Virus record (IMG/VR): IMGVR_UViG_2850796239_000009
DNA from: a virus
Taxonomy: Duplodnaviria > Heunggongvirae > Uroviricota > Caudoviricetes
DNA length: 56,870 bases
Direction: 5' to 3' (one strand)
The notes under the pieces: generated by a model
Database searches by the model: none
What the model was told of the DNA's origin: nothing
What the model saw: only the letters and a program-made list of their open reading frames with translations
Shown: in pieces, positions 11,589 to 39,898 of the stretch
Position numbering within the stretch: the stretch's first letter is position 1
How the letters are laid out: each line of letters begins with the position of its first letter
Program-made: the position numbers and the translations under genes

Positions 11589-12160
11589 CTAATACAGTAC
11601 TGCAATTCAACTACAGCAATGCCTCGTATTTAGGTGAATTTACAATATCGTTCTATTCGGATACCAACTGCATTTCTGAAGATAAGGCATTTATGGCTCA
11701 CATATTGGTCCCTCACGCTCGCCAGTTCTGTGCGGGGAGGGAGGGAAGGTAAAGAAACCGGGATGTTCATCCATCATCACTCTGGATTGATGTATATGCT
11801 CTCTTTTCTGACGTTAGTCTCCGACGGCAGGCTTCAATGACCCAGGCTGAGAAATTCCCGGACCCTTTTTGATCAAGAGCGATGTTAATTTGTTCAATCA
11901 TTTGGTTAGGAAAGCGGATGTTGCGGGTTGTTGTTCTGCGGGTTCTGTTCTTCGTTGACATGAGGTTGTCCCGTATTCTGTGTTGCTGATTTGTATTGTC
12001 TGAAGTTTTTTTTACGTTAAGTTGATGCAGATCAATTAATACGATACCTGCGTCATAATTGATTATTTGACGTGGTTTGATGGCGTAGATGCACGTTGTG
12101 ACATGTAGATGATAATTATTATCATTTTGCGGGTCCTTTCCGGCGATCCGACAGGTTACG

Positions 12161-18869: not shown

Positions 18870-18889
18870 GTCTATAAGGTAAAAACGCG

Positions 18890-20107: not shown

Positions 20108-20168
20108 TTCTGAAACTCCTAATCATCGGTGTGTTTCAGTATACACAAAAAAAGAAATACAAAAAGCC

Positions 20169-20206: not shown

Positions 20207-20348
20207 CGAAAGGATTGTTGAAATACAAAGAGCAACGCCCCGCAGTGCTGGGAACACATACGGGGCGTCTAACCAACAACGTAAACTAGGCTGTGTCCCT
20301 TAATCATCTGAGCTATAGTAACTGTCTGTTTACACAACATATTGAACT

Positions 20349-20798
20349 ATGGCTCGCTACGACCTTCCCGATGAGGCATGGACCATCATCAAGCCCCTGT
20401 TACCTCCTGAACCCGCCACACCACGGGCCGGACGCCCATGGGCTGAGCACCGTAAAATCATCAATGGCATGTTCTGGGTGTTATGTTCCGGTGCACCATG
20501 GCGCGATTTACCCGAACGATATGGGTCATGGAAAACTGTTTATAACCGCTTTAACCGATGGTCAAAGTCAGGCGTGATTAATATTATTTTCAACAGGTTG
20601 CTTTCGCTACTTGATGCAAACGGCTTTATTGACTGGTCTGCCACCGCGCTGGATGGCAGTAATATCCGGGCGCTGAAATGTGCCGCCGGTGCTCAAAAAA
20701 ACATCCCGATATCGACGGAGATAATGGGCCGGGTCGCTCTCGCGGCGGTTTTGGCACCAAAATCCATCTGGCAACAGACGGAAGTGGCCTCCCGTTAA
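20349..20798 (+). CDS. IS5-family transposase OrfA (copy 2)
   Basis: 149-aa ORF MARYDLPDEAWTIIKPLLPP...; A7 slippery run (GCTCAAAAAAAC) near its end feeds into orfB. Confidence 0.8.
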   Translation: MARYDLPDEAWTIIKPLLPPEPATPRAGRPWAEHRKIINGMFWVLCSGAPWRDLPERYGSWKTVYNRFNRWSKSGVINIIFNRLLSLLDANGFIDWSATALDGSNIRALKCAAGAQKNIPISTEIMGRVALAAVLAPKSIWQQTEVASR

Positions 20799-21193
20799 AT
20801 ATCGTGCTAAGCCCCGGACAAGCTCATGAAAGCCAGTTCGCGCAACGACTTCTGGACGGGATTGGCGTTCAGCGTCAGAACGGCAGCATGAAACGCCGTG
20901 GACATGCGGTACTGGCTGATAAAGCGTATTCAGGGCGCGCATTGCGCAACGAGCTGAAAAATAACGGTATAAAGGCAGTAATCCCCCGAAAGTCAAATGA
21001 GAAAATGGCATCGGATGGACGTGCACAGCTTGATCGTGATGCGTACCGCAATCGTAATGTCGTTGAACGGTGCTTTGGGCGGCTGAAAGAATATCGCCGC
21101 ATCGCCACGCGTTACGACAAAACGGCGAGAAATTACCTGGCGATGGTGAAACTGGGCTGCATCCGACTCTTTTATCAACGCTTACGTAATTAA
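20678..21193 (+). CDS. IS5-family transposase OrfB (DDE domain; likely OrfAB fusion by -1 frameshift)
   Basis: 171-aa ORF overlapping orfA in the -1 frame. Confidence 0.75.
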   Translation: MCRRCSKKHPDIDGDNGPGRSRGGFGTKIHLATDGSGLPLNIVLSPGQAHESQFAQRLLDGIGVQRQNGSMKRRGHAVLADKAYSGRALRNELKNNGIKAVIPRKSNEKMASDGRAQLDRDAYRNRNVVERCFGRLKEYRRIATRYDKTARNYLAMVKLGCIRLFYQRLRN

Positions 21194-21215
21194 GGGACAC
21201 AGCCTAGGAGCCGTT

Positions 21216-21413
21216 ATGGTTGCTGTAAATCATATACCACACCTTGTACACACACAAACGGCCTTTGTGTGGCGTTTTCTGGCACTGAGTGCCGGAGAAT
21301 CTCAAATCATCCACGTAACCGCCTGGACGGAACGCGAAGCGCGTAGCCGTTGCCCGTCCGGTTGTGTTGCTGTATTCGCTGCAAAAATCCGCCAGGGAGT
21401 GAGTCATGCTTAA
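21216..21413 (+). CDS. Hypothetical small protein (satellite operon)
   Basis: 65-aa ORF starting right after the IS5-family copy. Confidence 0.25.
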   Translation: MVAVNHIPHLVHTQTAFVWRFLALSAGESQIIHVTAWTEREARSRCPSGCVAVFAAKIRQGVSHA

Positions 21414-21591
21414 AACCTTCCGTGTATTTGCCCGAGCTGTTAACCCAATAGGCCACACAATTGGTATCGCTCAGAATGTGAAGGCTGTTAATGTTCAGAC
21501 GGCTATTGCTGCGGTGAGAAGCGAATCATCAGAATATGGCTTATCACAAGTCATTATTTCAGCAGTGTATGAATTAAAAGAGGTGCATTAA
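21406..21591 (+). CDS. Hypothetical small protein (satellite operon)
   Basis: 61-aa ORF overlapping its neighbours. Confidence 0.3.
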   Translation: MLKTFRVFARAVNPIGHTIGIAQNVKAVNVQTAIAAVRSESSEYGLSQVIISAVYELKEVH

Positions 21592-21782
21592 TGCAGGAAA
21601 TTACATTACACGAAGCCGCTGAACGTGCGCACCAGACAGAAATTATTTGCCGCCTTCTTGAGGTATACCCGAACAAAATTACAGATGCTGATATATCCGC
21701 ACTGGCGAGCCTACTGGCGCGTCTTTCGGGAAGTGTCGCTAGTTTTTTGATTGAGGAAGAAAGTAAGCTGGTGGGGGATTAA
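21591..21782 (+). CDS. Hypothetical small protein (satellite operon)
   Basis: 63-aa ORF with overlapping stop/start. Confidence 0.3.
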   Translation: MQEITLHEAAERAHQTEIICRLLEVYPNKITDADISALASLLARLSGSVASFLIEEESKLVGD

Positions 21783-22004
21783 ATGAATACAGAACGGGAA
21801 GTCTTTTTTAAATTGTTAGCATGTGCAGAAAGTTCATTAACTTTAAATAATTCAGCAAAAGCAATATTAAATATGTGGCTTGATTGCATAAATGACAATG
21901 AAGATGCAAATATTGCTTATGGCCTGTTGTCACTTATTGATGAATCAGCAGAAAAACTCAATGACGCAATAAATAGTGCCCTGCTATCAAATAAGTCGAG
22001 TTAA
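21783..22004 (+). CDS. Hypothetical small protein (satellite operon)
   Basis: 73-aa ORF. Confidence 0.3.
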   Translation: MNTEREVFFKLLACAESSLTLNNSAKAILNMWLDCINDNEDANIAYGLLSLIDESAEKLNDAINSALLSNKSS

Positions 22005-22021
22005 GTCGAGGAATAAATAAT

Positions 22022-22321
22022 ATGGAAATGAAAAATTCTGGCTTTATTGCCAGCGGCCCCGCTCGACCTGAATTTATGAACGGCGATATTTACCGCGATA
22101 AATACGGCGGCACGGTAACGATTAAAGGCGTGGCAGAACGGCGCATCACTTACCGCCGTGAGGGGTATAGCTATGACTGCGTGATGCCTGTTTATCAGTT
22201 CCGGCGTGATTTTTCCCTGGTATATGCCGCACCCCGCAGTAAGCCCATCAGCAGGGAAAAAGCGTGGGGAAATATCCAGAAAATGAAAACCATGATTAAC
22301 GGATTCAGAGGTAAAAAATGA
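22022..22321 (+). CDS. Hypothetical protein (satellite operon)
   Basis: 99-aa ORF whose stop overlaps the pri-rep start. Confidence 0.3.
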   Translation: MEMKNSGFIASGPARPEFMNGDIYRDKYGGTVTIKGVAERRITYRREGYSYDCVMPVYQFRRDFSLVYAAPRSKPISREKAWGNIQKMKTMINGFRGKK

Positions 22322-24071
22322 AACTGGCACCGAACGTAAAACAGCAGTCACGCGGCATAAAACACAAAGGAACAGAAGTAATTATTTTTGCGGGTAGTGA
22401 TGCCTGGGCACACGCGAAACAATGGCAGGAACATGATGCGCGTATGGCCGGAGATAATGAGCCTCCTGTGTGGCTTGGGGAGCAGCAGCTATCCGAACTG
22501 GATAATCTGCAAATTGTGCCGGAAGGCCGAAAATCAGCACGCATATACAGGGCCGGATATCTTGCGCCTGTAATGATAAAGGCGATTGGTCAGAAGCTGG
22601 CGGCAGCAGGCGTACAGGATGCAAATTTTTATCCTGAGGGTATGCACGGCCAGGAGGTGCAGAACTGGCGCGAATATCTGGCCCGTGAACGCCAGAATCT
22701 TTCTGATGGTCTGGTCATTGAGCTTCCGGTAAAGCAAAAGGCGCAACTTTCGCAGATGGCGGACAGTGAGCGCGCGCAGTTGCTTGCCGATCGCTTTGAT
22801 GGCGTTTGCGTACATCCTGAAAGTGAAATCGTTCACGTATGGCGCGGCGGGGTATGGTGTCCGGTCAGCACAATGGAACTTAGCCGCGAAATGGTGGCGA
22901 TCTATTCAGAGCACAGGGCCACTTTCAGCAAGCGCGTAATCAATAACGCCGTGGAAGCGTTAAAAGTTATTGCCGAACCAATGGGCGAGCCGTCTGGCGA
23001 TTTGCTGCCGTTCGCCAATGGTGCGCTTGACCTGAAAACGGGGGAATTTTCCCCGCACACGCCGGAGAACTGGATCACCACGCACAACGGCATTGAGTAC
23101 ACGCCACCAGCACCAGGGGAGAACATCCGCGATAACGCGCCAAACTTTCATAAATGGCTTGAGCACGCAGCCGGAAAAGACCCGCGCAAGATGATGCGTA
23201 TATGTGCCGCGCTGTACATGATTATGGCGAACCGGTACGACTGGCAGATGTTTATTGAGGCCACCGGAGACGGCGGGAGCGGTAAAAGTACATTCACACA
23301 CATAGCCAGCCTTCTGGCAGGGAAACAGAACACGGTAAGCGCTGAAATGACATCGCTTGATGATGCTGGTGGACGTGCGCAGGTTGTCGGGAGTCGTCTT
23401 ATCGTCCTGGCTGACCAGCCGAAATATACAGGCGAAGGAACGGGCATCAAGAAAATCACAGGCGGCGACCCGTGGAAATTAACCCGAAATATGAAAAGCG
23501 TTTCACGGCGGTAATCAGGGCGGTGGTGCTGGCGACCAACAACAACCCGATGATATTCACCGAACGGGCCGGAGGTGTGGCACGTCGTCGCGTGATTTTC
23601 CGTTTCGACAATATCGTCAGTGAGGCCGAAAAAGACAGGGAGCTACCGGAAAAGATTGCGGCTGAAATCCCCGTTATTATCCGCCGATTGCTGGCGAACT
23701 TTACCGACCCTGAGAAGGCACGGGCTTTACTACTGGAACAGCGTGACGGTGATGAAGCACTGGCAATAAAGCAACAGACGGATCCGGTTATTGAGTTTTG
23801 CCAGTTCCTGAATTTTCTGGAGGAAGCGCGCGGCCTGATGATGGGTGGCGGTGGTGATTCAGTGAAGTACACGACCAGGAACAGCCTTTACCGCGTCTAT
23901 CTGGCGTTTATGGCATACGCGGGCAGGAGCAAACCGCTAAACGTGGCTGAGTTCAGCAAGGCCATGAAGCCAGCGGCGAAAGTTTACGGGCATGAATATA
24001 TTACGCGAAAAGTTAAGGGAGTAACGCAGACCAACGCAATTACAACAGACGATTGCGACGCGTTTTTATAA
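22318..24071 (+). pseudogene. Primase-helicase (pri-rep, D5/P4-alpha-like), frame broken near 23470
   Basis: Walker A GDGGSGKST; ...KITGGDP switches frame to VEINPKYEKRF...NNNP (helicase-like C-terminus); two ORFs 22318-23514 and 23472-24071. Confidence 0.7.
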
Positions 24072-24087
24072 TTTTTTGTAAAAGCCA

Positions 24088-24325
24088 TCTACCCCATCTA
24101 CCTGAACGAAATAAACGCATATTATTCAACATGATAAGTGGGTATAGGGCTAGGTAGAAGGCTAATAAAAGCTCTCTACCTCTTCTACCTGATTTTATCA
24201 GTTTCAGGTAGCAGGGTAGACGGCAGGTAGAGGAGTCAAAAAAGCTATCTACCCGCTGAAAGCGGCGCCATTACTGACATGATGAGCATTCGGGTAGATG
24301 GGTAGAGGGGGGAGGCACAACTAAA
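24088..24325 (+). repeat. Iteron cluster / putative satellite replication origin
   Basis: At least ten TCTACC/GGTAGA-type repeats in both orientations with AT-rich spacers, directly downstream of pri-rep. Confidence 0.5.
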
Positions 24326-24355
24326 AACTTTTTAAACGAGGGGGGGTGAAAATAA

Positions 24356-24670
24356 ATGCGCATACATAAAAATCACTTAACAAACATGCCAGCCGAAAAC
24401 ATGAATCAGGGGCGACAAATGACCAAAATTCGCAGAGACAGAACACAGGCAAAATATAAAGCGTTAGACATGACAGAGCTTTCCTTAAAGGTGGCAATCA
24501 AAGCGATAGACCACCACACACGGGCAGGATACGCGAAGGAACATCCCGACCTGATAAGCGCATTCATGACCACAGCAGCGGCAAACTTTGCCACGCTGAC
24601 AGAACGGGAGATTGCCGAAGCGGAACAGGTGACAACCATCAATGTTAAAACCGGAGAGCAGACAGCATGA
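24356..24670 (+). CDS. Hypothetical protein
   Basis: 104-aa ORF; no recognisable motif. Confidence 0.3.
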   Translation: MRIHKNHLTNMPAENMNQGRQMTKIRRDRTQAKYKALDMTELSLKVAIKAIDHHTRAGYAKEHPDLISAFMTTAAANFATLTEREIAEAEQVTTINVKTGEQTA

Positions 24671-25089
24671 CAGCACAGATAGCGGCTTACGGGCGGCTGG
24701 TGGCTGACCCGCAGTTAAAGACCACCAGCAAAGGGACACAAATGGCGATGGCGAGTATGGCGGTTCCCCTGCCGTGCAGCCAGGCAGATGACGGAACGGC
24801 GACGATGTGGTTATCCGTCCTGGCGTTTGGCAGACAGGCCGACGCACTGGCAAAACACCACAAAGGCGAACTGGTGAGCGTGGCGGGTAACATGCAGGTA
24901 AGCCAGTGGACAGGCCAGAACGGCGAAACGCGGCGGGGCTGGCAGGTTATCGCAGACAGCGTAATCAGTGCGCGAACGGCGCGACCGGGCGGCAAAAAAG
25001 GCCAGCAGGGGCAGGCCACTGACGCACTGAACAGGGCAAAACAACAGTCGGGGAATGATGATCCGTACGGCGATAATATACCGTTTTAA
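24667..25089 (+). CDS. SSB-like single-stranded DNA-binding protein
   Basis: 140-aa ORF with Gly/Gln-rich linker and acidic C-terminal tip DDPYGDNIPF resembling the SSB tail DDDIPF. Confidence 0.5.
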   Translation: MTAQIAAYGRLVADPQLKTTSKGTQMAMASMAVPLPCSQADDGTATMWLSVLAFGRQADALAKHHKGELVSVAGNMQVSQWTGQNGETRRGWQVIADSVISARTARPGGKKGQQGQATDALNRAKQQSGNDDPYGDNIPF

Positions 25090-25300
25090 ATTCTGCAAAC
25101 AAAAAGATGCCGGAAAAAAATAGATTTTCCGGCATGCTACATAAATCCCGACCAAAGGAAGTAAATACATTAACACGAATTATCAGCACTGAAGTTGTTA
25201 CGGCATATTTTATACAACATTGCACTTGGTTGCATGTGTTCGCATAGCAGACATCGGTAATAGAATATATTCACAATTATTTGTAATGAATGTAAAGAGG

Positions 25301-26347
25301 ATGAGTATGGTTGATTTATATTCGCCTACACAGCTTGTGCAGGTGGCTAATGCTGAAGATGTGCAAAAAAATTAAATGCGTTGTTTACCAGTTTGTTTTT
25401 CACTCGCTCGGTAATGTTTGAATCGAGAGACATTATTCTTGATACGATCGACGATCCAAATATCCCGATCGCGGCGTTTTGCTCTCCTATGGTGGGCAGT
25501 AAAGTTTCACGAGATGAGGGATACGAATCAAAAACAATTCGTCCAGGTTATATGAAGCCGAAAAGCAGCATTGATCCAAATAAGTTAGCTGTGCAGCCCT
25601 GCTGGTGTGTCACCTGAGCAATACAATGCTTTTGGGGCGCGTAATATTAAAGTTAAACAGGCGATTGTAAATCAGGCTAAAGCTATTCGTGCACGTATTG
25701 AATGGCTTGCTGTTCAGGCAATCACAACGGGGAAAAATATCATTGAGGGCGATGGTATTGAACGTTATGAGCTGGACTGGAATATAAAACCACAAAATAT
25801 CATCACTCAGTCTGGCGGTACTGAGTGGTCAGGTAAGGATAAAGAAACTTTTGATCCAAATGATGATATTGAGAGCTACGCAGAATTTAGTGAGGGCGTC
25901 ACTAATATCATCATTATGGGTGGTAATGTATGGAAGAAATACCGTTCATTCAGAGCGATAAAAGAGGCTTTGGATACCCGTCGTGGTTCTAATTCCGAAC
26001 TGGAAACGGCCCTTAAAGACCTTGGTGATTCGGTGAGTTTTAAAGGGTATATGGGCGATGTTGCGATTGTTGTTTACAGCGGGCGTTATACCGACGAGGA
26101 CGGAACAGAAAAACATTTCCTTGATCCTGATTTGATGGTGCTTGGCAATACGGCTCTTCAGGGGATTGTCGCCTATGGCGGTATTCAGGATCCGGAGCTA
26201 ATCCGAATGGGGCTGACTAAAGCCGAACTTGCACCGAAAAACTATATTGTGCCTGGTGATCCGGCTATTGAATATGTGCAGACACATTCAGCACCACAGC
26301 CAATACCGGCCCGCATCAATCGTTTTGTTACCGTTCGCATTGGCTAA
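25301..26347 (+). pseudogene. Major capsid protein paralog (lambda gpE-like) encoded by the satellite; two homopolymer frame breaks
   Basis: MSMVDLYSPTQLVQVANAEDVQK (compare gpE MSMYTTAQLLAANEQKF), then ...ITQSGGTEWS...DTRRGSNSELETALKDLG...GDVAIVVYSG... alignable with the helper gpE at 31416-32441; breaks at the A7 run 25365-25371 and CCC at 25597-25599. Confidence 0.75.
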
Positions 26348-26356
26348 GGGGGAGCA

Positions 26357-26698
26357 ATGGCTACTCATTACACTGAACTCATGGCTGGCACTGAAGCACT
26401 GGTGACTACGCTGGGGATATTTTCAGCTAATAAAGGGGTAATTCCTGCATTTACGCCACTGATGCAGGAAGATGCAACAGGTGCACTGGTGGTATGGGAT
26501 GGTTCGAGCGTAGGTAAAGCGGTTTATGTTTCCGCTGTACAAATCGACACCGCGAAAAAAACACAGGCTCAGGTCTATAAGACAGGTGTCTTAAATGTTG
26601 ATGCTCTGAACTGGCCTGAGTCTGTTAAAGAACTGTCAGTAAAGGTTGCAGCGTTTGTTGGCTCAGGTATTTCTGTTCAGCCGCTGGCTCGTGTGTAA
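26357..26698 (+). CDS. Head decoration protein paralog (lambda gpD-like) encoded by the satellite
   Basis: 113-aa ORF with ...AFTPLMQEDATGALVVWDGSSVGKAVYVSAVQID... alignable with helper gpD (...[35 protein letters not shown]...). Confidence 0.7.
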   Translation: MATHYTELMAGTEALVTTLGIFSANKGVIPAFTPLMQEDATGALVVWDGSSVGKAVYVSAVQIDTAKKTQAQVYKTGVLNVDALNWPESVKELSVKVAAFVGSGISVQPLARV

Positions 26699-26709
26699 AG
26701 GGGGATACA

Positions 26710-27093
26710 ATGCAGAATGATTACAATGACCTTAAGCCAATTGCCGAAATGATGTACCCGAATCCAGCTGTAGAGGAATTAAAAGCTATCGCTGACAAAA
26801 TGTGTTTAAGCGAGCGCCTTGTTGATATGAATCAGGTGATGGAAATTACAACCCTGAGTCGTCGTACACTGCTAAACCTTGAGGCTAGTGGAGAGTTCCC
26901 GGAGCGTGTGCAGGTTACGGAAGGGCGTAAGGCCTGGTATTTAAGTGAAGTGATCGACTGGATAAATAATATTCCTCGCGCTTCTGAATATTGCCGCGTA
27001 CCTGTCCCAAAAAAGCCAGATGCGGCGCTATGCCTCAAGATTGAGCGTGTACGCCGCAATGCACGGGATGGTCGCTATAAGCTGATTGGTTGA
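26710..27093 (+). CDS. AlpA-like HTH DNA-binding protein
   Basis: 127-aa ORF with ...MEITTLSRRTLLNLEASGEFPERVQVTEGRKAWYLSEVIDWINN, a MerR/AlpA-like HTH pattern. Confidence 0.45.
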   Translation: MQNDYNDLKPIAEMMYPNPAVEELKAIADKMCLSERLVDMNQVMEITTLSRRTLLNLEASGEFPERVQVTEGRKAWYLSEVIDWINNIPRASEYCRVPVPKKPDAALCLKIERVRRNARDGRYKLIG

Positions 27094-27149
27094 TGAAATT
27101 AGGGCCCGCTCTGGCTGGCGGGTCCTTTCCGGTGATCCGGTAGGCTACG

Positions 27150-27161
27150 GGGCGGCGACCT
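27150..27161 (+). other. Satellite cos site (cosN GGGCGGCGACCT, helper-like cosQ, divergent cosB)
   Basis: GGGTCCTTTCCGGTGATCCGGTAGGCTACGGGGCGGCGACCTCGCGGGTTTTCGCTATTTATGA matches the helper cos at 12131-12195 almost base for base, then diverges. Confidence 0.75.
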
Positions 27162-27282
27162 CGCGGGTTTTCGCTATTTATGAGCCTTTTTCGGGTGCTG
27201 GTGGTGGTTTTGTTGTTCGCTCTATCTCTATGAATAAAAAGGAAAAGATAAAGCCAATACACCAACCTGAAACATTACTTAA

Positions 27283-27837
27283 GTGGGGATATTGATGAAA
27301 TCGCACCTGATGAACAAAAAAAACATGGCGCAAAGCTGCCGTGTAAGTGCGACAGCGTTCGACAAGTGGGGAGTGACTCCCGTTGAACGTAAAGGCCGCG
27401 AGGCGTTTTATGATGTTGCCAGCGTAATAGACAATCGGGTTAGCAATGCAATTAACCAGATTACAGACGACAAAGGCGAGATTGATGATGATGAACTCCT
27501 ACGAGTCAGGATCAGATTGCTGACAGCACAGGCAGAGGCGCAGGAGCTTAAAAACGAGCGCGAACGCGGCGACGTTATTGATACAGCGTTTTGTATATAC
27601 GTGCTTTCAAAATTGGCGAGTCAGATTTCTTCAATCATGGACAGCCTGCCGCTTGCCATGACAAGGAAGTTTCCCGACATGAAGCCGTCTATGCTGGATG
27701 GACTGAAAAAAGAAGTTATCAGAGCCTGTAACGCATGCGCAAAACTTGACGAAAACATACCGCTGATGCTGTCCGATTATCTGATGGAAACTGCCGGAAA
27801 CGTACCGGATAAGTTGCAGCCGAATAAAGATAAGTAA
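27283..27837 (+). CDS. Satellite terminase small subunit (Nu1-like; divergent N-terminal domain)
   Basis: C-terminal part ...LTAQAEAQELKNERERGDVIDTAFCIYVLSKLASQISSIMDSLPL... parallels Nu1 ...[46 protein letters not shown]...; true start may be Met-10 (27310). Confidence 0.7.
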   Translation: MGILMKSHLMNKKNMAQSCRVSATAFDKWGVTPVERKGREAFYDVASVIDNRVSNAINQITDDKGEIDDDELLRVRIRLLTAQAEAQELKNERERGDVIDTAFCIYVLSKLASQISSIMDSLPLAMTRKFPDMKPSMLDGLKKEVIRACNACAKLDENIPLMLSDYLMETAGNVPDKLQPNKDK

Positions 27838-27848
27838 CGTAGTACGCT

Positions 27849-28130
27849 ATGACTGAATCCGAAATACTGCGATTAATCCGCCGTGCTTGTGGAATCAGCA
27901 AGCAGCATGACGAACAGGCCACGCAGCCGGACAGCGTGACCGCAGATAATTATGTGCGTGTAGTGGCTGAGGTGATGCGCCGTGACGGTATTGAGCTTAA
28001 CGGCGTGGATATGCGCAACATACGAACAAGAGTCCTTGAGTTGCTGGCATATCGTCGCCGTTCTCAACAACGGAGGGAGAGCGCGAAAAATACTTACCAG
28101 TGGAAGAAGCCGGAACGATTGCGGCGGTAA
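27849..28130 (+). CDS. Hypothetical protein
   Basis: 93-aa basic ORF after terS. Confidence 0.3.
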   Translation: MTESEILRLIRRACGISKQHDEQATQPDSVTADNYVRVVAEVMRRDGIELNGVDMRNIRTRVLELLAYRRRSQQRRESAKNTYQWKKPERLRR

Positions 28131-28560
28131 CTTGCTGATATTCCCGATAACGCAAAATTGCGCTGGCTGACTTGTTGCATTGCAAAAAGTTAAGCAGGAA
28201 GGCACGGCCTGTAAGATGGGATGCAGTAAGTAGTTCAAGGCTACCTTGTGCTGGCACGCACAGTTAAGCCGTCGGTGCTGGATATCCCCCACTGGGGAAA
28301 AGCTGGCTACATCCCTCACATCTGAGGACTGATAACGCGACATTGCGCTGGCTGGCAAAGTGCAAAATTGCACGATGGCCTAACCCATTGATTATTTCGA
28401 AAACCTGCAATGCAGGAAATCGGGGAAGTAAGCCTAAGCTATTGATTGTTTCGAAAACCCCCATTGGGGGATGTCGGGAAAGTAAGACTAACCCATTGAT
28501 TCTTCCACAATCCTCAATTTGAGGAGGCCGGAACGTCTACATAGCTGCATCGCCGTAATG
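28130..28560 (+). repeat. Array of direct repeats each containing a different perfect palindrome (covarying stems)
   Basis: Three tandem ~54-bp units (28383-28545) share ATTGATTnTTyC...TCGGGrAAGTAAG and hold CCTGCA-A-TGCAGG, CCCCCA-T-TGGGGG, CCTCAA-T-TTGAGG; related pair GATAACGCnAnATTGCGCTGGCTG at 28146 and 28331 with CGCAA-AA-TTGCG, TTGCA-T-TGCAA, GTGCAA-AA-TTGCAC. Confidence 0.6.
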
Positions 28561-28843
28561 ATGATTCAGCCCACCAGCCAAATCAGCACAGCAACGACAG
28601 AATAGCCCGACACAGAAAAACCACGAATATGGGGTTTTTGTTATGACATGGTCATGATGACCACTCATACAAAACAGGTAAAGCCCACCAGCCTGATTAA
28701 AGGTTAACCGGAAAAAAGCCAGGTATCCAATCTCGATATGGGGATCCCTATATCGACATTAACGCCCACTAAAACTGTGCATATATGCATAGAAAAAGCA
28801 TCCACCAGCTTTATGACGGATGCCGCTCATCTTATAAATAATC

Positions 28844-28866
28844 GTGTATTGCAGTGTGTATTGCGA
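28844..28866 (+). repeat. Two GTGTATTGC repeats next to attR (arm-type-like)
   Basis: CGTGTATTGCAGTGTGTATTGCGA, related to the TGTGTATTGCAA repeats at attL. Confidence 0.4.
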
Positions 28867-28946
28867 CTCCTTTAAACGATAGGTCTGAGCATTCGTAATG
28901 TACTGTTTTTAAATTTTATTTTTTCCTGTCTTTTCATAAAGGCGAT

Positions 28947-31018: not shown

Positions 31019-31027
31019 GGGATGTTT

Positions 31028-31360
31028 ATGACGAGCAAAGAAACCTTTACCCATTACCAGCCGCTGGGCAACAGTGACCCGGCTCATACCGCAACCGCGC
31101 CCGGCGGATTGAGTGCGAAAGCGCCTGCAATGACCCCGCTGATGCCGGACACCTCCACCCGTAAGCTGGTTGCGTGGGATGGCACCACCGACGGTGCTGC
31201 CGTTGGCATTCTTGCGGTTGCTGCTGACCAGACCAGCACCACGCTGACGTTCTACAAGTCCGGCACGTTCCGTTATGAGGATGTGCTCTGGCCGGAGGCT
31301 GCCAGCGATGAGACGAAAAAACGGACCGCGTTTGCCGGAACGGCAATCAGCATCCTTTAA
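31028..31360 (+). CDS. D: Head decoration protein gpD
   Basis: [27 protein letters not shown]...; followed by a GCCGCCTGTGCGGC hairpin. Confidence 0.9.
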
Positions 31361-31415
31361 CCTTACCCTTCATCACTAAAGGCCGCCTGTGCGGCTTTTT
31401 TTACGGGATTTTTTT

Positions 31416-32441
31416 ATGTCGATGTACACAACCGCCCAGCTGCTGGCGGCAAATGAGCAGAAATTTAAGTTTGATCCGCTGTTTCTGCGTCTCTTTTTCC
31501 GTGAGAGCTATCCCTTCACCACGGAGAAAGTCTATCTCTCACAAATTCCGGGACTGGTAAACATGGCGCTGTACGTTTCGCCGATTGTTTCCGGTGAGGT
31601 TATCCGTTCCCGTGGCGGATCCACCTCTGAATTTACACCGGGATATGTCAAGCCCAAGCATGAGGTGAATCCGCAGATGACCCTGCGTCGCCTGCCGGAT
31701 GAAGATCCGCAGAATCTGGCGGACCCGGCTTACCGCCGCCGTCGCATCATCCTGCAGAACATGCGAGACGAAGAGCTGGCCATTGCTCAGGTCGAAGAGA
31801 TGCAGGCCGTTTCTGCCGTGCTCAAGGGCAAATACACCATGACCGGTGAAGCCTTCGATCCGGTTGAGGTGGATATGGGCCGCAGTGCGGCGAACAACAT
31901 CACGCAGTCCGGCGGCACGGAGTGGAGCAAGCGTGACAAGTCCACGTATGACCCGACCGACGATATCGAAGCCTACGCGCTGAACGCCAGCGGCGTGGTG
32001 AATATCATCGTGTTTGACCCGAAAGGCTGGGCGCTGTTCCGTTCCTTCAAAGCCGTCAGGGAGAAGCTGGATACCCGTCGCGGCTCTCATTCCGAACTGG
32101 AGACAGCGGTAAAAGACCTGGGCAAAGCGGTGTCTTATAAGGGAATGTATGGCGATGTGGCCATCGTCGTGTATTCCGGACAGTACGTGGAAAACGGCGT
32201 CAAAAAGAACTTCCTGCCGGACAACACGATGGTGCTGGGTAACACTCATGCACGCGGTCTGCGCTCCTATGGCTGTATTCAGGATGCGGATGCATTGAGT
32301 GAGGGTATTAATGCGTCTCCCCGTTATCCGAAAAACTGGAAGACATCCGGCGATCCGGCGCGAGAGTTCACCATGATTCAGTCAGCACCGCTGATGCTGC
32401 TGGCTGATCCTGATGAGTTCGTGGCCGTTCAACTGGCGTAA
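31416..32441 (+). CDS. E: Major capsid protein gpE
   Basis: MSMYTTAQLLAANEQKFKFDPLFLRLFFRESYPFTTEKVY..., 341 aa, matches recalled lambda gpE. Confidence 0.95.
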   Translation: MSMYTTAQLLAANEQKFKFDPLFLRLFFRESYPFTTEKVYLSQIPGLVNMALYVSPIVSGEVIRSRGGSTSEFTPGYVKPKHEVNPQMTLRRLPDEDPQNLADPAYRRRRIILQNMRDEELAIAQVEEMQAVSAVLKGKYTMTGEAFDPVEVDMGRSAANNITQSGGTEWSKRDKSTYDPTDDIEAYALNASGVVNIIVFDPKGWALFRSFKAVREKLDTRRGSHSELETAVKDLGKAVSYKGMYGDVAIVVYSGQYVENGVKKNFLPDNTMVLGNTHARGLRSYGCIQDADALSEGINASPRYPKNWKTSGDPAREFTMIQSAPLMLLADPDEFVAVQLA

Positions 32442-32523
32442 TCATGGCCCTTCGGGGCCATTTTCTCTCTGTGGAGGAGTCCATGACGAAAGTAAGCGCT
32501 CCGAGAAGTACGTAGCGTAAGGA

Positions 32524-34124
32524 TTATTTTACAGACGAGAAGTTCCAGGGCAGCAGTTCATGCACTTGGTTCGACGGCCAGTCATTGAGCTTCTCGATCA
32601 CTTCGCGCAACCAGTCCTCCGGCTCCACTTCGTTCTGTTTGCAGGTGACCAGCAGACTGTAGATGATCGCCGCACTTTCTCCTCCCTTGTCTGAGCCGAA
32701 AAAGAGATAATTTTTTCTTCCAACCGCCACCGATCGTAACGCGTTTTCACCGATGTTGTTGTCTATTTCCACCCAGCCGTCACGACAGAACTCGTTCAGC
32801 GCATTCCAGTGATTCAGGATATAGTCGAACGCCTTCGCCATCTCCGCATGTTTCGACAGCGTTTTCCTCTGCAACTGTATCCAGTCGTACAACGACTGCA
32901 TCAACTGGACGCTTCTGGCTTTTCTGACTGCAAGCCGTTCCTCTGCCGGACTGCCACGTATCTCCGCTTCTATGTCGTATAACTCTGCTATCCGTCTGAG
33001 CGCTTCCTGAGTCATTTCTGTCGGACGGCGCACATCCTCGTCATGGATTTTTCGGCGGGCGTGGGCCAGGCACCCGGCTTCCTTCACCCGGCCCGTTTCG
33101 TACAGTACGTTATAACCTGCATAGGCATCAGCCTGCAGTACGCCCTGATACTTTGCCAGGTGGAGCTGCGGATGTTCTCCTTTGCGATCTGCCGAATACG
33201 CGAACCAGACGGCTGCCGGCAGGGATGAACCCGCATTACGATCATCCCTGACGTATACCCACAGACGACCCGTTTTCGTCTTTCCGTTCCCCGGGGCCAG
33301 TACTTTCACCGGAGTGTCATCTGCGTGCACCTTTCCTGCCTCCAGAACATAGTCATTCAGCGCTATATACAGAGGACGGAGTTTGTCTGCCATTTCTGAT
33401 ACCCAGCGCACCATGGTATTACGGCTCAGCTCCACGCCCTGTCGCGCGTATATTTCTGACTGGCGATATAAAGGGATATGTTCCATATATTTGCTGACCA
33501 GGATCCGTGCAAGTAACCCTGCACTGGCATAACCGCGTTCGATCGGTTTAGGGGAAGTGGTGCCTGAACGATGACATCACACCGGCTACAGGCCAGTTTG
33601 GGACGTATGGTTTCGATAACTTTAAAGGCGGTATTAATGATATCCAGTTGCTCTGAGATTGTTTCCCCCATTTCTTTCAGAACACCTCCACAGGCCGGGC
33701 AACTGGTTTCAGCAGGCAGAAGGCGATGTGTCTCCCGGGGAAGTTCTGCCGGCAGCGGTTTTCGTGAAGATTTTCGTCCCGGGGATTCAGGCTTACTGGC
33801 GATCGGGTTTTCTGACGGGGGACTGGTGTCAGGTGAATCTGTGACTGACGATGCATCTTCCAGAAGATTTCTGGCTGTGTTCAGCCGGTTTTCCAGTTCC
33901 GACAGTCGTTTTTCTGCCTGTCGGATCTGATTTTCAAGCTTATGACGCTTTTTCTCTGAACTCTGGCCGAACAACATACGACGCAACCTGTCGAGTTGCG
34001 CTTTCAGCCGTTCAATTTCCTGCTCATAGCCCGCGACCTGACAGGCATACTGTCGAAGCCGACTCTGTTGCTTACGCAACATGGCTTTAAGCAGCTCAAT
34101 ATCATCGGGGAGTTCATTGTTCAT
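32524..34124 (-). pseudogene. IS66-family transposase TnpC, frame broken near 33520
   Basis: N-terminal zinc-finger part (CPACGG...CSRCDV) at 33426-34124 and C-terminal DDE part ([17 protein letters not shown]...) at 32524-33486 lie in different frames. Confidence 0.75.
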
Positions 34125-34143
34125 TCCCTTGTTTTATCACGGG

Positions 34144-34491
34144 TTATATCCGGATGCCAGGCCGTTCTGTCCGTTTGGGATGTTGCCACGCGATCCCCTC
34201 CAGTAGCATGGATAACTGAGCTGGCGTCAGGTGCACTTTCCCTTCCCGGGTCACCGGCCAGACGAAGCGGCCCCGTTCCAGGCGTTTGGCGAACAGGCAT
34301 AACCCGTCACGATCGGCCCACAGTATTTTCACCATTTTGCCACTGCGGCCCCGGAAGACGAAGATATGCCCGGAGAACGGGTCATCTTTCAGCGTGTTCT
34401 GCACCTTCGAAGCCAGGCCATTGAAGCCACAACGCATATCTGTGATGCCAGCGATGATCCAGATTTTGGTACCGGTCGGCAGCGTTATCAT
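34144..34491 (-). CDS. IS66-family TnpB
   Basis: 115-aa ORF MITLPTGTKIWIIAGITDMRCGFNGLASKVQ..., the IS66 Orf2 pattern. Confidence 0.8.
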   Translation of the reverse strand: MITLPTGTKIWIIAGITDMRCGFNGLASKVQNTLKDDPFSGHIFVFRGRSGKMVKILWADRDGLCLFAKRLERGRFVWPVTREGKVHLTPAQLSMLLEGIAWQHPKRTERPGIRI

Positions 34492-34619
34492 CGGATACCC
34501 CCTTTCATTTCGCGGATTAGCGCCCGTAACAGTTCCGGAGTGAGAGGGTCAAACAGTTTTACCACACCTGATTTAAGATGCAGCTCGCACCGTGGGACGT
34601 TTCCGGGAGCCCCCTCAGG

Positions 34620-35920
34620 CTGAGGAATCCCCAGAAAACGAGACAGACATAGCATTATGTGATCTACTGATTTGTGCCAACAATTCAATGAGATCACTGC
34701 TATGCCTGTTCATAAAGTATGTCAGAATTTCTTCCGGGATGCCTTAGCACCATTTCATCAGTACCGACAAAATGCCCTGATGGATGCCACAGTGGCGTTA
34801 ATCAACGGAGCATCTCTGACGCTGACCAGTATCGGACGTTTTTTGCCGGGTAATGCACAAGTTAAGAATAAGATCAAACGTATTGATCGCCTCATGGGTA
34901 ATGAGGCGCTCCATCGCGATATTCCAATGATTTTCAGGAATATCACTTCAATGCTGACACGGCAGTTATCTTTATGTGTAATAGCCGTAGACTGGAGTGG
35001 CTATCCCTCCCAGGAGCATCATGTTCTTCGTGCCAGCCTTCTGTGTGACGGGCGTTCCATTCCGTTATTGAGTAAGGTTGTTCCTTCTGAAAAACAAAAT
35101 AATCCATTGATACAACATGATTTCCTTGATTCCCTTGCTCAATCCCTGCCCCCCGATGCCAGGGTTATTATTGTCACGGATGCTGGATTTCAGAGCGCAT
35201 GGTTTCACCATATTACTTCTCTGGGCTGGGATTTTATTGGTCGGATCAGAAATAACGTTCAGTATTGCCTCGATAACGCGCCTGAAAGATGGTTAAAAGT
35301 GTCGGATAGCCCTGAATGTAAAACACCGGAATATATGGGGGCTGGAAGGCTGGTTAAAGAAAGGAAAAAAAGCATCCGGGGGCATTTTTACACCTATAAG
35401 AAATCGGCAAAAGGGCGAAAAAAGAAACGTTCGAAAGGTCAGAGTGGTTTAAACAAAACAGACAAAGAACAGAGCAAATCAGCAAAAGAAGCCTGGTTGA
35501 TCTTCAGCAGTACAAATGACTTCAGAGCGCGAGAAATCATCAAGTTATACAGTCGGCGAATGCAGATTGAGCAAAACTTTCGTGATGAAAAGAACGGGCG
35601 CTTCGGATTTGGTCTTCGGGCCAGCAAAAGTCGTTCAACAGGAAGAATTCTGGTTCTGAGTCTGCTGGCAACGTTGAGCACTATCGTAATGTGGTTACTC
35701 GGTTATCACGCTGAAAATAAAGGGTTACACCTGAAATATCAGGCTAACAGCATTAAATCCCGGCGGGTTATCTCATATCTGACGTTAGCGAAGAATGTTC
35801 TTCGACACTCGCCACTTATTTTAAGACGAACAGTACTGAGCACAGTTCTAAACCATCTGTCCAGAACCTACCGAAATATGGTGCTGGTTTATTAGCAGTA
35901 ATTTTGTGGGGATCCCTCAG
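34620..35920 (+). mobile_element. IS10-like (IS4-family) insertion sequence, copy 2, 1301 bp, nested in the IS66-family element
   Basis: Ends CTGAGGAATCCCCA...TGGGGATCCCTCAG; 9-bp target duplication CCCCTCAGG at 34611-34619 and 35921-35929. Confidence 0.85.
34672..35895 (+). CDS. IS10-like (IS4-family) transposase, intact copy
   Basis: 407-aa ORF with DDE-type architecture similar to the IS10 transposase. Confidence 0.8.
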   Translation: MCQQFNEITAMPVHKVCQNFFRDALAPFHQYRQNALMDATVALINGASLTLTSIGRFLPGNAQVKNKIKRIDRLMGNEALHRDIPMIFRNITSMLTRQLSLCVIAVDWSGYPSQEHHVLRASLLCDGRSIPLLSKVVPSEKQNNPLIQHDFLDSLAQSLPPDARVIIVTDAGFQSAWFHHITSLGWDFIGRIRNNVQYCLDNAPERWLKVSDSPECKTPEYMGAGRLVKERKKSIRGHFYTYKKSAKGRKKKRSKGQSGLNKTDKEQSKSAKEAWLIFSSTNDFRAREIIKLYSRRMQIEQNFRDEKNGRFGFGLRASKSRSTGRILVLSLLATLSTIVMWLLGYHAENKGLHLKYQANSIKSRRVISYLTLAKNVLRHSPLILRRTVLSTVLNHLSRTYRNMVLVY

Positions 35921-36541
35921 CCCCTCAGGGCGCTCATCATGCTTGTTACGCCAGAAGGGATTTGTAACTGGTCTGGTCGGCTCCGGCGTATCAGTCAGTG
36001 CCACCGGGACAGGCATGCATTCCTGTATGTCATCATCGCTCAGTAAGCCGTCCTCGTACTGGCTTTTCCATTTAAACAGCAGGTTATCATTGATATCGTG
36101 TTCTCTGGCGATCCGGGCAACAACAGCCCCAGGCTGTAACGCCTGCTTAGCCAGACGGACCTTAAATTCACGGCTATAGCTGGTTCGCCGTTCTTTTCGC
36201 CATGAGCCTTCTCTGATTTGAGGCTCTGTTAATTCCTTCTTTCTGTTGGCATAAAGGATGGCGTCAAGTTGAGCGAATGAAACTGAATCGGGCAATGGCC
36301 ATGCGATACCGGATGCAAGAAATCGCTGAAAAAGCGTATGTATTGTGGAATGACTGAGACCCAGACGCTGAGCGATGGCCCGGATGGTCAGTTTATCTTC
36401 AAATCTTAAACGCAGGGCATCAGGCAAATAAGAACGGAAGCAGGGAATATCTTTTGTTGTCTGGGAATTCATCGTTCGTGTCCATCAATATAGATGGGCG
36501 CGATTGTTGCCAGACAGGACAATTTTCACAAGACGTCGCTG

Positions 36542-36949
36542 ATGGGGCGCTTACTGACGAAAGATGAACTGATTGCCCGTCTTCAGGTGCTGGGTGAGCA
36601 ACTGAACCGTGATGTCAGCCTGACGGGGACGAAAGAAGAACTGGCGCTCCGTGTGGCAGAGCTGGAAGAGGAGCTTGATGACACGGATGACGCAGCCGGT
36701 CAGGACACGTCTGTCAGCCCGGAAAATGCGCTGACCGGACATGAAAATGAGGTGGTATCAGAACAGACGGATACCGTGACTGATACGGCTGCTCTGGTCA
36801 CGGTCGTGGCACTGGTGACGCTGCATACCGATGCACTTCACGCCACGCGGGATGAACCTGTGGCATTTGTGCTGCCGGGAACGGCGTTTCGTGTCTCTGC
36901 CGGTGTGGCAGCCGAAATGACAGAACGTGGTCTGGCCAGAATGCAATAA
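36542..36949 (+). CDS. FI: DNA-packaging protein FI, native start displaced by IS66-family insertion
   Basis: Native ATG-ACG-AAA lies at 32483-32491 left of the IS; after the IS the frame continues TKDELIARLQVLGEQLNRDV...; an in-frame ATG inside the IS end (36542) would give MGRLL-TKDEL... Confidence 0.6.
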   Translation: MGRLLTKDELIARLQVLGEQLNRDVSLTGTKEELALRVAELEEELDDTDDAAGQDTSVSPENALTGHENEVVSEQTDTVTDTAALVTVVALVTLHTDALHATRDEPVAFVLPGTAFRVSAGVAAEMTERGLARMQ

Positions 36950-36960
36950 CGGGAGGCGCT

Positions 36961-37314
36961 GTGGCTGATTTCGATAACCTGTTCGATGCTGCCATTGCCC
37001 GCGCCGATGAAACGATACGCGGGTACATGGGAACGTCAGCCACCATGACATCCGGTGAGCAGTCCGGCGCAGTAATACGTGGTGTTTTTGATGACCCTGA
37101 AAATATCAGCTATGCCGGACAGGGCGTGCGCGTTGAAGGCTCCAGCCCGTCCCTGTTTGTCCGGACTGATGATGTGCGGCAACTGCGGCGTGGAGACACG
37201 CTGACCATCGGTGAGGAAAACTTCTGGATAGACCGGGTTTCGCCGGATGATGGTGGAAGCTGTCATCTCTGGCTTGGGCGGGGCGTACCGCCTGCCGTTA
37301 ACCGTCGCCGCTGA
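36961..37314 (+). CDS. FII: Head-tail joining protein FII
   Basis: 117-aa ORF (GTG start) MADFDNLFDAAIARADETIRGYMG... Confidence 0.9.
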   Translation: MADFDNLFDAAIARADETIRGYMGTSATMTSGEQSGAVIRGVFDDPENISYAGQGVRVEGSSPSLFVRTDDVRQLRRGDTLTIGEENFWIDRVSPDDGGSCHLWLGRGVPPAVNRRR

Positions 37315-37325
37315 AAGGGGGATGT

Positions 37326-37904
37326 ATGGCCATAAAAGGTCTTGAGCAGGCCGTTGAAAACCTCAGCCGTATCAGCAAAACGGCGGTGCCTGGTGCCGCC
37401 GCAATGGCCATTAACCGCGTTGCTTCATCCGCGATATCGCAGTCGGCGTCACAGGTTGCCCGTGAGACAAAGGTACGCCGGAAACTGGTAAAGGAAAGGG
37501 CCAGGCTGAAAAGGGCCACGGTAAAAAATCCGCAGGCCAGAATCAAAGTTAACCGGGGGGATTTGCCCGTAATCAGGCTGGGTAACGCGCGGATTGTCCT
37601 GTCCCGACGCAGGCGTCGTAAAAAGGGGCAGCGTTCAGCCCTGAAAGGTGGCGGCAGCGTGCTTGTGGTGGGAAACCGTCGTATTCCCGGCGCGTTTATT
37701 CAGCAACTGAAAAATGTCCGGTGGCATGTCATGCAGCGTGTGGCCGGGAAAAACCGTTACCCCATTGATGTGGTGAAAATCCCGATGGCGGTGCCGCTGA
37801 CCACGGCGTTTAAACAGAATATTGAGCGGATACGGCGTGAACGTCTTCCGAAAGCGCTGGACTATGCGCTGCAGCATCAACTGAGGATGGTAATAAAGCG
37901 ATGA
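37326..37904 (+). CDS. Z: Tail completion protein Z
   Basis: 192-aa ORF MAIKGLEQAVENLSRISKTAVPG... Confidence 0.9.
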   Translation: MAIKGLEQAVENLSRISKTAVPGAAAMAINRVASSAISQSASQVARETKVRRKLVKERARLKRATVKNPQARIKVNRGDLPVIRLGNARIVLSRRRRRKKGQRSALKGGGSVLVVGNRRIPGAFIQQLKNVRWHVMQRVAGKNRYPIDVVKIPMAVPLTTAFKQNIERIRRERLPKALDYALQHQLRMVIKR

Positions 37905-38296
37905 AACATACTGAACTCCGTGCAGCCGTACTGGATGCACTGGAGAAGCATGACACCGGGGCGACGTTTTTTGATGGTCGCCCCGCTGTTTTTGATGAGG
38001 CGGATTTTCCGGCAGTTGCCGTTTATCTCACCGGCGCTGAATACACGGGCGAAGAGCTGGACAGCGATACCTGGCAGGCGGAGCTGCATATCGAAGTTTT
38101 CCTGCCTGCTCAGGTGTCGGATTCAGAGCTGGATGCGTGGATGGAGTCCCGGATTTATCCGGTGATGAGTGATATCCCGGCACTGTCAGATTTGATCACC
38201 AGTATGGTGGCCAGCGGCTATGACTACCGGCGCGACGATGATGCGGGCCTGTGGAGTTCAGCCGATCTGACTTATGTCATTACCTATGAAATGTGA
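37901..38296 (+). CDS. U: Tail terminator protein U
   Basis: 131-aa [29 protein letters not shown]... Confidence 0.9.
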
Positions 38297-38303
38297 GGAC
38301 GAT

Positions 38304-39044
38304 ATGCCAACACCAAATCCTCTGGCACCGGTGAAAGGGGCCGGGACCACCCTGTGGGTTTATAACGGGAGCGGCGACCCTTATGCAAACCCGCTTTCAG
38401 ACAATGACTGGTCGCGTCTGGCAAAGGTTAAAGACCTGACGCCCGGCGAACTGACCGCTGAGTCCTATGACGACAGTTATCTCGATGATGAAGATGCGGA
38501 CTGGGCCGCGACCGGACAGGGGCAGAAATCTGCCGGAGATACCAGCTTCACGCTGGCGTGGATGCCCGGAGAGCAGGGGCAGCAGGCGCTGCTGGCGTGG
38601 TTTAATGAAGGTGATACCCGTGCCTATAAAATCCGCTTCCCGAACGGCACGGTCGATGTGTTCCGCGGCTGGGTCAGCAGTATCGGTAAGGCGGTGACGG
38701 TGAAGGAAGTGATCACCCGCACGGTGAAAGTCACCAACGTGGGACGTCCGTCGATGGCAGAAGATCGCAGCACGGTAACAGCGGCAACCGGCATGACCGT
38801 GACGCCTGCCAGCACCTCGGTGGTGAAAGGACAGAGCACTACGCTGACCGTGGCATTCCAGCCGGAAGGCGCAACCGACAAGAGCTTCCGTGCGGTGTCT
38901 GCGGATAAAACAAAAGCCACCGTGTCGGTCAGTGGTATGACCATCACCGTGAAAGGTGTTGCTGCAGGCAAGGTCAACATTCCGGTCGTATCCGGTAATG
39001 GTGAACTTGCTGCGGTTGCAGAAATCAACGTCACCGCCCGTTAA
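38304..39044 (+). CDS. V: Major tail protein V
   Basis: [33 protein letters not shown]...; ORF-track frame starts at 38274. Confidence 0.9.
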
Positions 39045-39059
39045 TCCGGAGAGTCAGCG

Positions 39060-39482
39060 ATGTTCCTGAAAACCGAATCATTTGAACATAACGGTGTGAC
39101 CGTCACGCTTTCTGAACTGTCAGCCCTGCAGCGTATTGAGCATCTTGCCTGGTTGAAAGAGCAGGAAAAAAAGGCTGAATCCAGTGGCAACCTGCAGGTG
39201 TCTGTAGAGGAGCTTATCAGAGGCGGGGCGTTTCTGGTGGCGATGTCTCTGTGGCATAACCATCCACAGAAGACAAAGCTGCCGTCCATGAATGAAGCCA
39301 TTACGCAGATTGAGCAGGAAGTGCTTACCACCTGGCCCACGGAGGCAATTGCTCAGGCTGAAAACGTGGTGTTACGTCTGTCCGGAATGTCTGAGTTTGT
39401 GGTGAATGATGCTCCTGAACAGACAGAGGACGCCGGGCCTGCAGAGCCTGTTTCTGCGGGAAAGTGTTCGACGGTGAGCTGA
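39060..39482 (+). CDS. G: Tail assembly chaperone G
   Basis: 140-aa ORF MFLKTESFEHNGVTVTLSELSALQRIEHLAWL...; slippery GGGAAAG near its 3' end. Confidence 0.9.
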   Translation: MFLKTESFEHNGVTVTLSELSALQRIEHLAWLKEQEKKAESSGNLQVSVEELIRGGAFLVAMSLWHNHPQKTKLPSMNEAITQIEQEVLTTWPTEAIAQAENVVLRLSGMSEFVVNDAPEQTEDAGPAEPVSAGKCSTVS

Positions 39483-39898
39483 GTTTTGCCCTGAAACTGG
39501 CGCGTGAGATGGGGCGACCCGACTGGCGTGCCATGCTTGCCGGGATGTCATCCACGGAGTATGCCGACTGGCACCGCTTTTACAGTACCCATTATTTTCA
39601 TGATGTTCTGCTGGATATGCACTTTTCCGGGCTGACATACACCGTCCTCAGCCTGTTTTTCAGCGATCCGGATATGCATCCGCTGGATTTCAGTCTGCTT
39701 AACCGGCGCGAGGCTGACGAAGAGCCTGAAGATGATGTGCTGATGCAGAAAGCGGCAGGGCTTGCCGGAGGCGTCCGCTTTGGCCCGGACGGGAATGAAG
39801 TTATCCGCGCTTCCCCGGATGTGGCGGATATGACGGAGGATGACGTAATGCTGATGACAGTATCAGAAGGGATCGCAGGAGGAGTCCGGTATGGCTGA
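39464..39898 (+). CDS. T: T portion of the G-T tail assembly chaperone (made by -1 programmed frameshift from G)
   Basis: 144-aa -1 frame ORF overlapping the G 3' end: ...LKLAREMGRPDWRAMLAGMSSTEYADWHRFYS... Confidence 0.8.
   Translation: MFDGELSFALKLAREMGRPDWRAMLAGMSSTEYADWHRFYSTHYFHDVLLDMHFSGLTYTVLSLFFSDPDMHPLDFSLLNRREADEEPEDDVLMQKAAGLAGGVRFGPDGNEVIRASPDVADMTEDDVMLMTVSEGIAGGVRYG

Follow-up and report, generated by a model that had tools for sequence, protein, structure and literature searches.

Which frame changes in a viral genome are read as programmed signals, and which are accidents of the sequence? The question is raised by IMG/VR virus record IMGVR_UViG_2850796239_000009 (Caudoviricetes), a DNA stretch of 56,870 nucleotides (nt), here called the window, in which broken reading frames are numerous. 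An earlier reading of the letters alone (the original prediction) had claimed that two canonical programmed -1 frameshift signals stand intact among accidental breaks between positions 20349 and 39898. One was a slippery run in the orfA/orfB overlap of an IS5-family insertion sequence (IS), identified here as ISSfl7; the other was a GGGAAAG heptamer around 39450-39465, in the overlap of the tail chaperone genes G and T. Both signals are present, in the required frame and inside overlaps of a 0 frame with a -1 frame. Exact alignment, which might have placed the motifs away from the frame overlaps, puts both of them within. Their positions, frames, homology, conservation and annotation are matters of direct observation, and we give a probability of about 0.85 that each is a true signal for programmed -1 recoding, of a kind already known.

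The two overlaps and their heptamers

The window contains three copies of ISSfl7 (A, B and C). The predicted site lies in copy B, the features of which are as follows (aa, amino acids; bp, base pairs).

20289..21204, + strand: ISSfl7 copy B, 916 bp, classed as IS5 family and apparently IS427-like; 99-100% identity to NCBI-named elements
20349..20798, + strand: orfA, 149 aa; N-terminal DUF4096 domain, and a DDE_Tnp_1 match that begins at residue 99 and includes the LDGSN segment
20663..21193, + strand: orfB frame, -1 relative to orfA, open from 20663; carries the remainder of the DDE domain
20696..20702, + strand: A_AAA_AAC, slippery in the orfA frame; shares the A7 run 20695-20701 and lies in CAAAAAAAC at 20694-20702

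A pattern search of the window located CAAAAAAAC on the + strand. The table of open reading frames (ORFs) and direct translation define an orfA/orfB overlap of 136 nt (20663-20798) with the A7 run inside it. Translation in the orfA frame gives the codons CAA AAA AAC and hence the heptamer A_AAA_AAC. The element is bounded by terminal inverted repeats, GGCTGTGTCCCTTAAT, matching at 16/16 positions. The target duplication of copy B is TA/TA in a CTAG target; all three window copies are TA-flanked, and the uninterrupted copy B site in an Escherichia coli relative (L004) reads CTAGG. Elements 99-100% identical to it are named 'IS5-like element ISSfl7 family transposase' by NCBI, and it is from this annotation, not from ISfinder, that we take the name. 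In the identical copies NCBI annotates a two-piece coding sequence (CDS) with the note 'programmed frameshift'. The ISSfl7 slip site is of a known kind, already annotated in public genomes; in our literature search ISSfl7 was mentioned only three times, each incidentally, and nothing was found on its frameshift.

The IS5-family model NF033580 covers residues 3-275 of the fused 281-aa product in one stretch, with a score of 317.7 bits (cut-off 110). This end-to-end match is reached only by fusing both frames. The fused product also matches the Pfam models PF13340 and PF01609. Since the DDE_Tnp_1 match (residues 99-271) crosses the frame junction at residue ~118, neither ORF alone codes for the whole DDE domain. 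The claim of a slippery run in an IS5-family orfA/orfB overlap thus agrees with both the NF033580 match of the fusion and the NCBI annotation.

The second site lies in two overlapping ORFs, G and T, between the major tail protein gene V and the tape-measure gene H.

39060..39482, + strand: gene G, tail assembly chaperone, 140 aa; TIGR01674 and PF06894; length and position as lambda G
39458..39464, + strand: G_GGA_AAG, slippery heptamer read in the G frame; six codons upstream of the G stop
39419..39898, + strand: T frame, -1 relative to G, open from 39419; TIGR01715 and PF06223 on the fused product; G-T fusion of 279 aa

The G-frame codons GCG GGA AAG place G_GGA_AAG at 39458-39464, within the interval given by the original prediction. 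The fused G-T product scores 189 bits against TIGR01674 and 185 bits against TIGR01715, and also matches PF06894 and PF06223. The gene order V (38274-39044), G, T, H (from 39891) agrees with the lambda and E. coli prophage annotations, and the G and T-frame coordinates map one-to-one onto lambda's annotated G and T. The G/T region exhibits 3 mismatches to lambda in 101 nt aligned, none of them in the ~17 nt upstream of the heptamer or downstream to the end of the alignment, a stretch of ~60 identical nt. The comparison with lambda that had been proposed as a check therefore finds the same site, base for base. Elsewhere in the G gene, a short stretch (39182-39214) diverges from one E. coli relative. 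A break at 41650 in the tape-measure gene H would leave the tail module as assembled non-functional.

In lambda, GGGAAAG codes for Gly-Lys in both frames, is read in the zero frame ~96% of the time, and is closely followed by the G stop (PMC3296357). By its identity to lambda at the site, the present allele would be expected to produce the G-T fusion at a similarly low ratio. Ribosomes translating G would reach G_GGA_AAG, where a small fraction (~4% in lambda) would slip back by one base, Gly-Lys being coded in both frames. The slipped ribosomes would bypass the G stop six codons on and complete the 279-aa G-T protein, which would act together with G in tail assembly.

The occurrence of the motifs was compared with chance. 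CAAAAAAAC is found 4 times in the window against 0.98 expected, a number reached in none of 100 shuffles (0/100); this excess arises because three of the four occurrences fall in the three ISSfl7 copies. GGGAAAG is found 10 times against 7.6 expected, with no enrichment. Its count therefore cannot support the G/T claim, which is supported instead by frame and position. By our own estimate, the chance of an exact in-frame G_GGA_AAG in the 21-codon overlap is ~0.001, and that of an in-frame A_AAA_AAN in 45 codons ~0.01. As a window-wide control, we took, on both strands, all pairs of open frames 80 codons or longer in which the downstream frame is -1 and overlapping. Of ~57 such pairs, 8 bear any in-frame X_XXY_YYZ heptamer, and an in-frame A_AAA_AAN or G_GGA_AAG occurs only in the three ISSfl7 copies and in G/T.

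Origin and reading of the ISSfl7 split

We fetched 80 loci that encode relatives of the ISSfl7 transposase. Close Enterobacterales relatives (61-90% protein identity) that retain the junction region change frame at query residues ~117-120, and A_AAA_AAC is in frame at the same position in all frameshifted Enterobacterales ones with an intact overlap (21/21). These 21 come from Klebsiella, Symbiopectobacterium, Xenorhabdus, Photorhabdus, Serratia and Phytobacter. The one close relative that departs from this frame change (L009) has a deletion in the junction region, a frame difference of +1 and no heptamer. The codons beside the heptamer differ from one relative to another, and the length of the run (A7, A8 or A9) depends on the upstream codon. 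At its 3' end the run keeps a fixed in-frame edge (AAA AAC/T); at its 5' end and in length it drifts as the upstream codons change. Elements of Erwinia (L007) and Pectobacterium (L019) have a premature stop in orfA and still keep CAAAAAAAC. A Dickeya element exhibits A_AAA_AAT, with the other Asn codon, and an element from an Isosphaeraceae (planctomycete) metagenome-assembled genome exhibits A_AAA_AAA. Relatives at 33-47% identity are mostly single-ORF. The element of Klebsiella sp. WOUb02 (L005), alone among the close relatives in seeming single-frame, was considered as a true fused version and rejected: an upstream compensating indel scrambles ~30 residues, including LDGSN. Only through this indel does it read as one ORF, and it still carries CAAAAAAAC.

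These comparisons bear directly on the possibility that the split in the window is accidental or sequencing-derived, that is, a 1-nt loss from an A8 run like the other homopolymer contractions of the window. All the other breaks that we checked are indeed homopolymer contractions, one of them from A8 to A7 (at 25365), and a Shigella sonnei plasmid copy of ISSfl7 with A8 has one intact 281-aa ORF. However, A7 is present in all three window copies, and copies 100% identical in independent assemblies are annotated with a programmed frameshift. The same -1 arrangement recurs at the same site in over 20 diverged relatives from other genera, and gene callers have recovered separate 171-aa OrfB products on unrelated metagenome contigs. 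Because the same split and heptamer pattern recurs across relatives, an accident or sequencing error in the window copy is excluded. Accidental loss appears extremely improbable as an account of the split and is effectively refuted by these comparative data.

The slip would probably proceed as follows. Ribosomes translating orfA would reach A_AAA_AAC, where the Lys tRNA in the P-site and the Asn tRNA in the A-site would re-pair on AAA AAA in the -1 frame. Slipping would yield the 281-aa OrfAB transposase, and unshifted reading the 149-aa OrfA. We would expect a weak, unstimulated, IS1-like ribosomal slip giving little OrfAB and mostly OrfA: since the motif is that of IS1 and no stimulatory structure is evident, shifting should be rare and transposition kept low. 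That ISSfl7 slips, and does so on the ribosome, we infer from the comparisons, together with the efficiency of the slip and any regulatory role of OrfA.

Several observations weigh against this reading. A stimulatory RNA structure downstream of the ISSfl7 heptamer is unsupported by a single-sequence fold (z = -0.54). The consensus fold of 11 sequences reaches -8 kcal/mol with one compensatory pair and almost no covariation, and its nearest hairpin begins ~25 nt downstream of the heptamer. The fold downstream of the G/T heptamer is not significant either (z = -1.86). The word "canonical" in the original prediction is generous for A_AAA_AAC: the motif is the proven one of IS1 (PMC4066793), yet in E. 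coli it shifts far less readily than A_AAA_AAG (PMC5009743). As of PMC3281130, trans-frame products had been demonstrated only for the IS1 and IS3 families, those of the IS427 group being inferred, and our literature search found no experiment demonstrating an ISSfl7 trans-frame protein. Nor is the tandem heptamer strictly universal in the clade: a Serratia relative (L086) has A7G in a different register, T_AAA_AAA_G. The related elements ISBugl2 and IS402 carry A5 only. What is conserved may thus be not a strict heptamer but simply a run of A at this place.

The last points lead to another way of joining the two frames, namely transcriptional slippage, in which the RNA polymerase would add an extra A on the A7 run and bring orfA and orfB into one frame with no ribosomal slip. 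Other IS elements use A/T runs in this way, as does Shigella mxiE (PMC1088944), and a survey, as it is cited in PMC4066793, has 22 of 47 IS clusters possibly using transcriptional realignment and not ribosomal frameshifting. The relatives of ISSfl7 have runs of A7 to A9, and an A8 variant of the DNA gives exactly the fused 281-aa ORF. The Serratia relative, whose register spoils the tandem heptamer, is yet annotated as making the fusion; together with the A5 elements it fits an A run at this spot better than a strict heptamer. Nevertheless, the documented IS cases use runs of at least 9 (A9/T9; PMC1088944), whereas the run of ISSfl7 is 7. An in-frame 3' edge that stays fixed while the length drifts would be expected of a ribosomal heptamer and not of a polymerase signal that depends on length, and the identical heptamer is proven to be ribosomal in IS1 (PMC4066793). 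We therefore regard transcriptional slippage as unlikely, and keep programmed ribosomal frameshifting as the preferred reading of ISSfl7.

The S. sonnei copy with A8 (L095; plasmid CP104417.1, 128703-130145) is an observation in its own right. It reads as a single 281-aa ORF with the junction QKKH, and is either a naturally "unlocked" copy or the product of a homopolymer error in its assembly. It is conceivable, though in our view quite unlikely, that the ISSfl7 A run operates at several levels at once: ribosomes would slip on it weakly, transcription would slip on it too, and the DNA itself would switch between A7 and A8. In that case the A8 copy would encode a real "unlocked" transposase. 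Were this true, such a transposase could drive bursts of ISSfl7 expansion, for example to the 30+ copies present in some genomes.

Accidental breaks and other mobile elements in the window

Accidental frame breaks were located by comparison with an E. coli prophage 98-99% identical to the window (L004), with paralogous IS copies and with a plasmid copy. The breaks are listed below by position.

17451: G6 to G5, against the E. coli prophage
23469: C4 to C3, primase, against the E. coli prophage
24307: G8 to G6, against the E. coli prophage
25365: A8 to A7, satellite capsid gene, against the E. coli prophage
28294: G5 to G4, against the E. coli prophage
41650: G5 to G4, gene H, against the E. 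coli prophage
15568: one G short of G5, ISSfl1 copy 1; the sole difference from copy 2 over 1307 nt
10891: C5 to C4, ISSfl7 copy A, orfB broken; against the other window copies
33551: one G short of G5, ISSfl3 transposase, against the plasmid copy

All nine checked breaks (9/9) are homopolymer contractions of 1-2 nt, mostly in G/C runs, with zero expansions. The accidental homopolymer breaks of the original prediction are real; this pattern suggests systematic homopolymer under-calling in the assembly more than random decay or pseudogenisation. A proven slippery heptamer was found in none of the overlaps of the accidental breaks. In the window-wide control, no in-frame heptamer occurs in the -1 breaks of the primase, gene H and the ISSfl3 transposase, and the broken ISSfl1 copy has only A_AAG_GGC in frame, ~30 nt from the real indel. 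In the satellite capsid gene, the -1 indel at 25365 is followed 230 nt later by a +1 insertion at 25595, which is not in a homopolymer. Together the two indels restore the frame, and the shifted stretch between them contains a stop.

Programmed sites number two within 20349-39898, as had been predicted for that span, and five in the whole window: the three ISSfl7 copies, G/T and an IS600 fragment. The additional ones belong to the following elements.

10675..11589, - strand: ISSfl7 copy A, 915 bp; same in-frame A_AAA_AAC at 11182-11176; orfB broken at 10891
49842..50757, + strand: ISSfl7 copy C, 916 bp; same in-frame A_AAA_AAC at 50249-50255; one substitution
1..367, - strand: left part of IS600 (IS3 family), cut by the window edge; matches an IS600 annotated 'programmed frameshift' in another locus (L087)

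The substitution of copy C changes Pro to Leu, in agreement with the family consensus GLGRSRGG. In the orfA of IS600 (303-1, - strand), A_AAA_AAA(G) is in frame at 53-47, and the -1 frame continues to the window edge without a stop. After ISSfl7 and G/T, the fragment is the third kind of programmed -1 site in this DNA.

The proposal that slippery sites serve as internal controls holds across the window: the programmed breaks have a proven in-frame heptamer and the accidental ones do not. A working rule follows. A programmed break combines a proven in-frame heptamer with the same split in diverged relatives; an accidental break has neither the heptamer nor the shared split, and is absent from near-identical references. 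In annotation practice, joined functional CDS and not pseudogenes should be recorded at both sites, and likewise for the remaining copies of ISSfl7 and for the fragment of IS600.

Other mobile elements are present. Between the major capsid gene E and FI (32492-36555), an ISSfl3 (IS66 family) is interrupted by an ISSfl1 (IS4 family, 34617-35923). No in-frame slippery heptamer was seen in ISSfl3 or ISSfl1 within 20349-39898, and to our knowledge neither kind is known to use frameshifting. A second ISSfl1 copy (15024-16329, - strand) interrupts the portal gene. Inside the portal gene of the lambdoid prophage there is also a satellite-like island of ~11 kb (about 16318-28940, from integrase through small terminase). 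Besides an integrase and a primase, this island codes for major capsid and decoration proteins of its own and for a small terminase subunit; several E. coli genomes are arranged likewise, including the reference prophage (L004). Further IS elements were sought in the unmatched segments 368-1102, 1360-1797 and 8184-10277 and rejected, these segments containing phage accessory genes and no transposases.

Comparison with IS427-group elements, IS1 and lambda

Both features are of kinds already known, and no new biology follows from them. Members of the IS427 group are 832-865 bp long, with a 2-bp duplication, two overlapping ORFs and a conserved frameshift motif, the DDE domain being complete only in the fusion (PMC3281130). 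ISSfl7 exhibits inverted repeats, a 2-bp direct repeat, 0/-1 ORFs and a DDE domain that is whole in the fusion, and at 916 bp falls in the ~800-1000 bp range taken here for the group, being somewhat longer than the Paracoccus IS427 members (832-865 bp). It shares the small size, the 2-bp target duplication and the 0/-1 ORFs with ISBugl2, IS402, IS1248 and the Paracoccus ISPa elements. ISBugl2 is listed as IS5/IS427 (PMC13260241). Both ISBugl2 and IS402 match the ISSfl7 product in two pieces from residue 1 or 8 to 280; the identity is ~33%, and the protein identity between ISSfl7 and ISBugl2 is only ~33%. The 0/-1 junction lies at the same protein position in ISBugl2, IS402, ISLpl3 and a Rhizobium element. 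In ISBugl2 and IS402 it falls at a homologous ...GAG-(Q/E)K... site, and the junction that the group has in common with ISSfl7 is just past the conserved ...AAGA-KK... segment. These likenesses support the placement of ISSfl7 as a probable IS427-like member of the IS5 family.

Members do not share one slip motif: that of the ISSfl7 clade is A_AAA_AAC, that of ISLpl3 A_AAA_AAA and that of the Rhizobium element A_AAA_AAG, and ISBugl2 and IS402 carry A5. The comparison with IS427-group sites suggested by the original prediction thus holds for the position of the junction and not for the motif.

In IS1, A_AAA_AAC is 'a proven case of frameshifting' with 'no established stimulator' (PMC4066793). 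The InsA/InsAB' system of IS1 and ISSfl7 have the identical heptamer, a short upstream ORF fused to a catalytic ORF, and no known or evident downstream stimulator. Membership of ISSfl7 in the IS1 family was considered and rejected, as no IS1 model is found among the NCBIfam/Pfam matches and the heptamer alone is in common. The likeness of ISSfl7 to IS1 is one of mechanism, not of membership.

With lambda G/G-T the G/T site shares the gene families, the order V-G-T-H, a G of 140 aa and a fusion of 279 aa, as well as the same G_GGA_AAG in the same frame, six codons ahead of the G stop and within ~60 identical nt. At the site itself there is no relevant difference from lambda.

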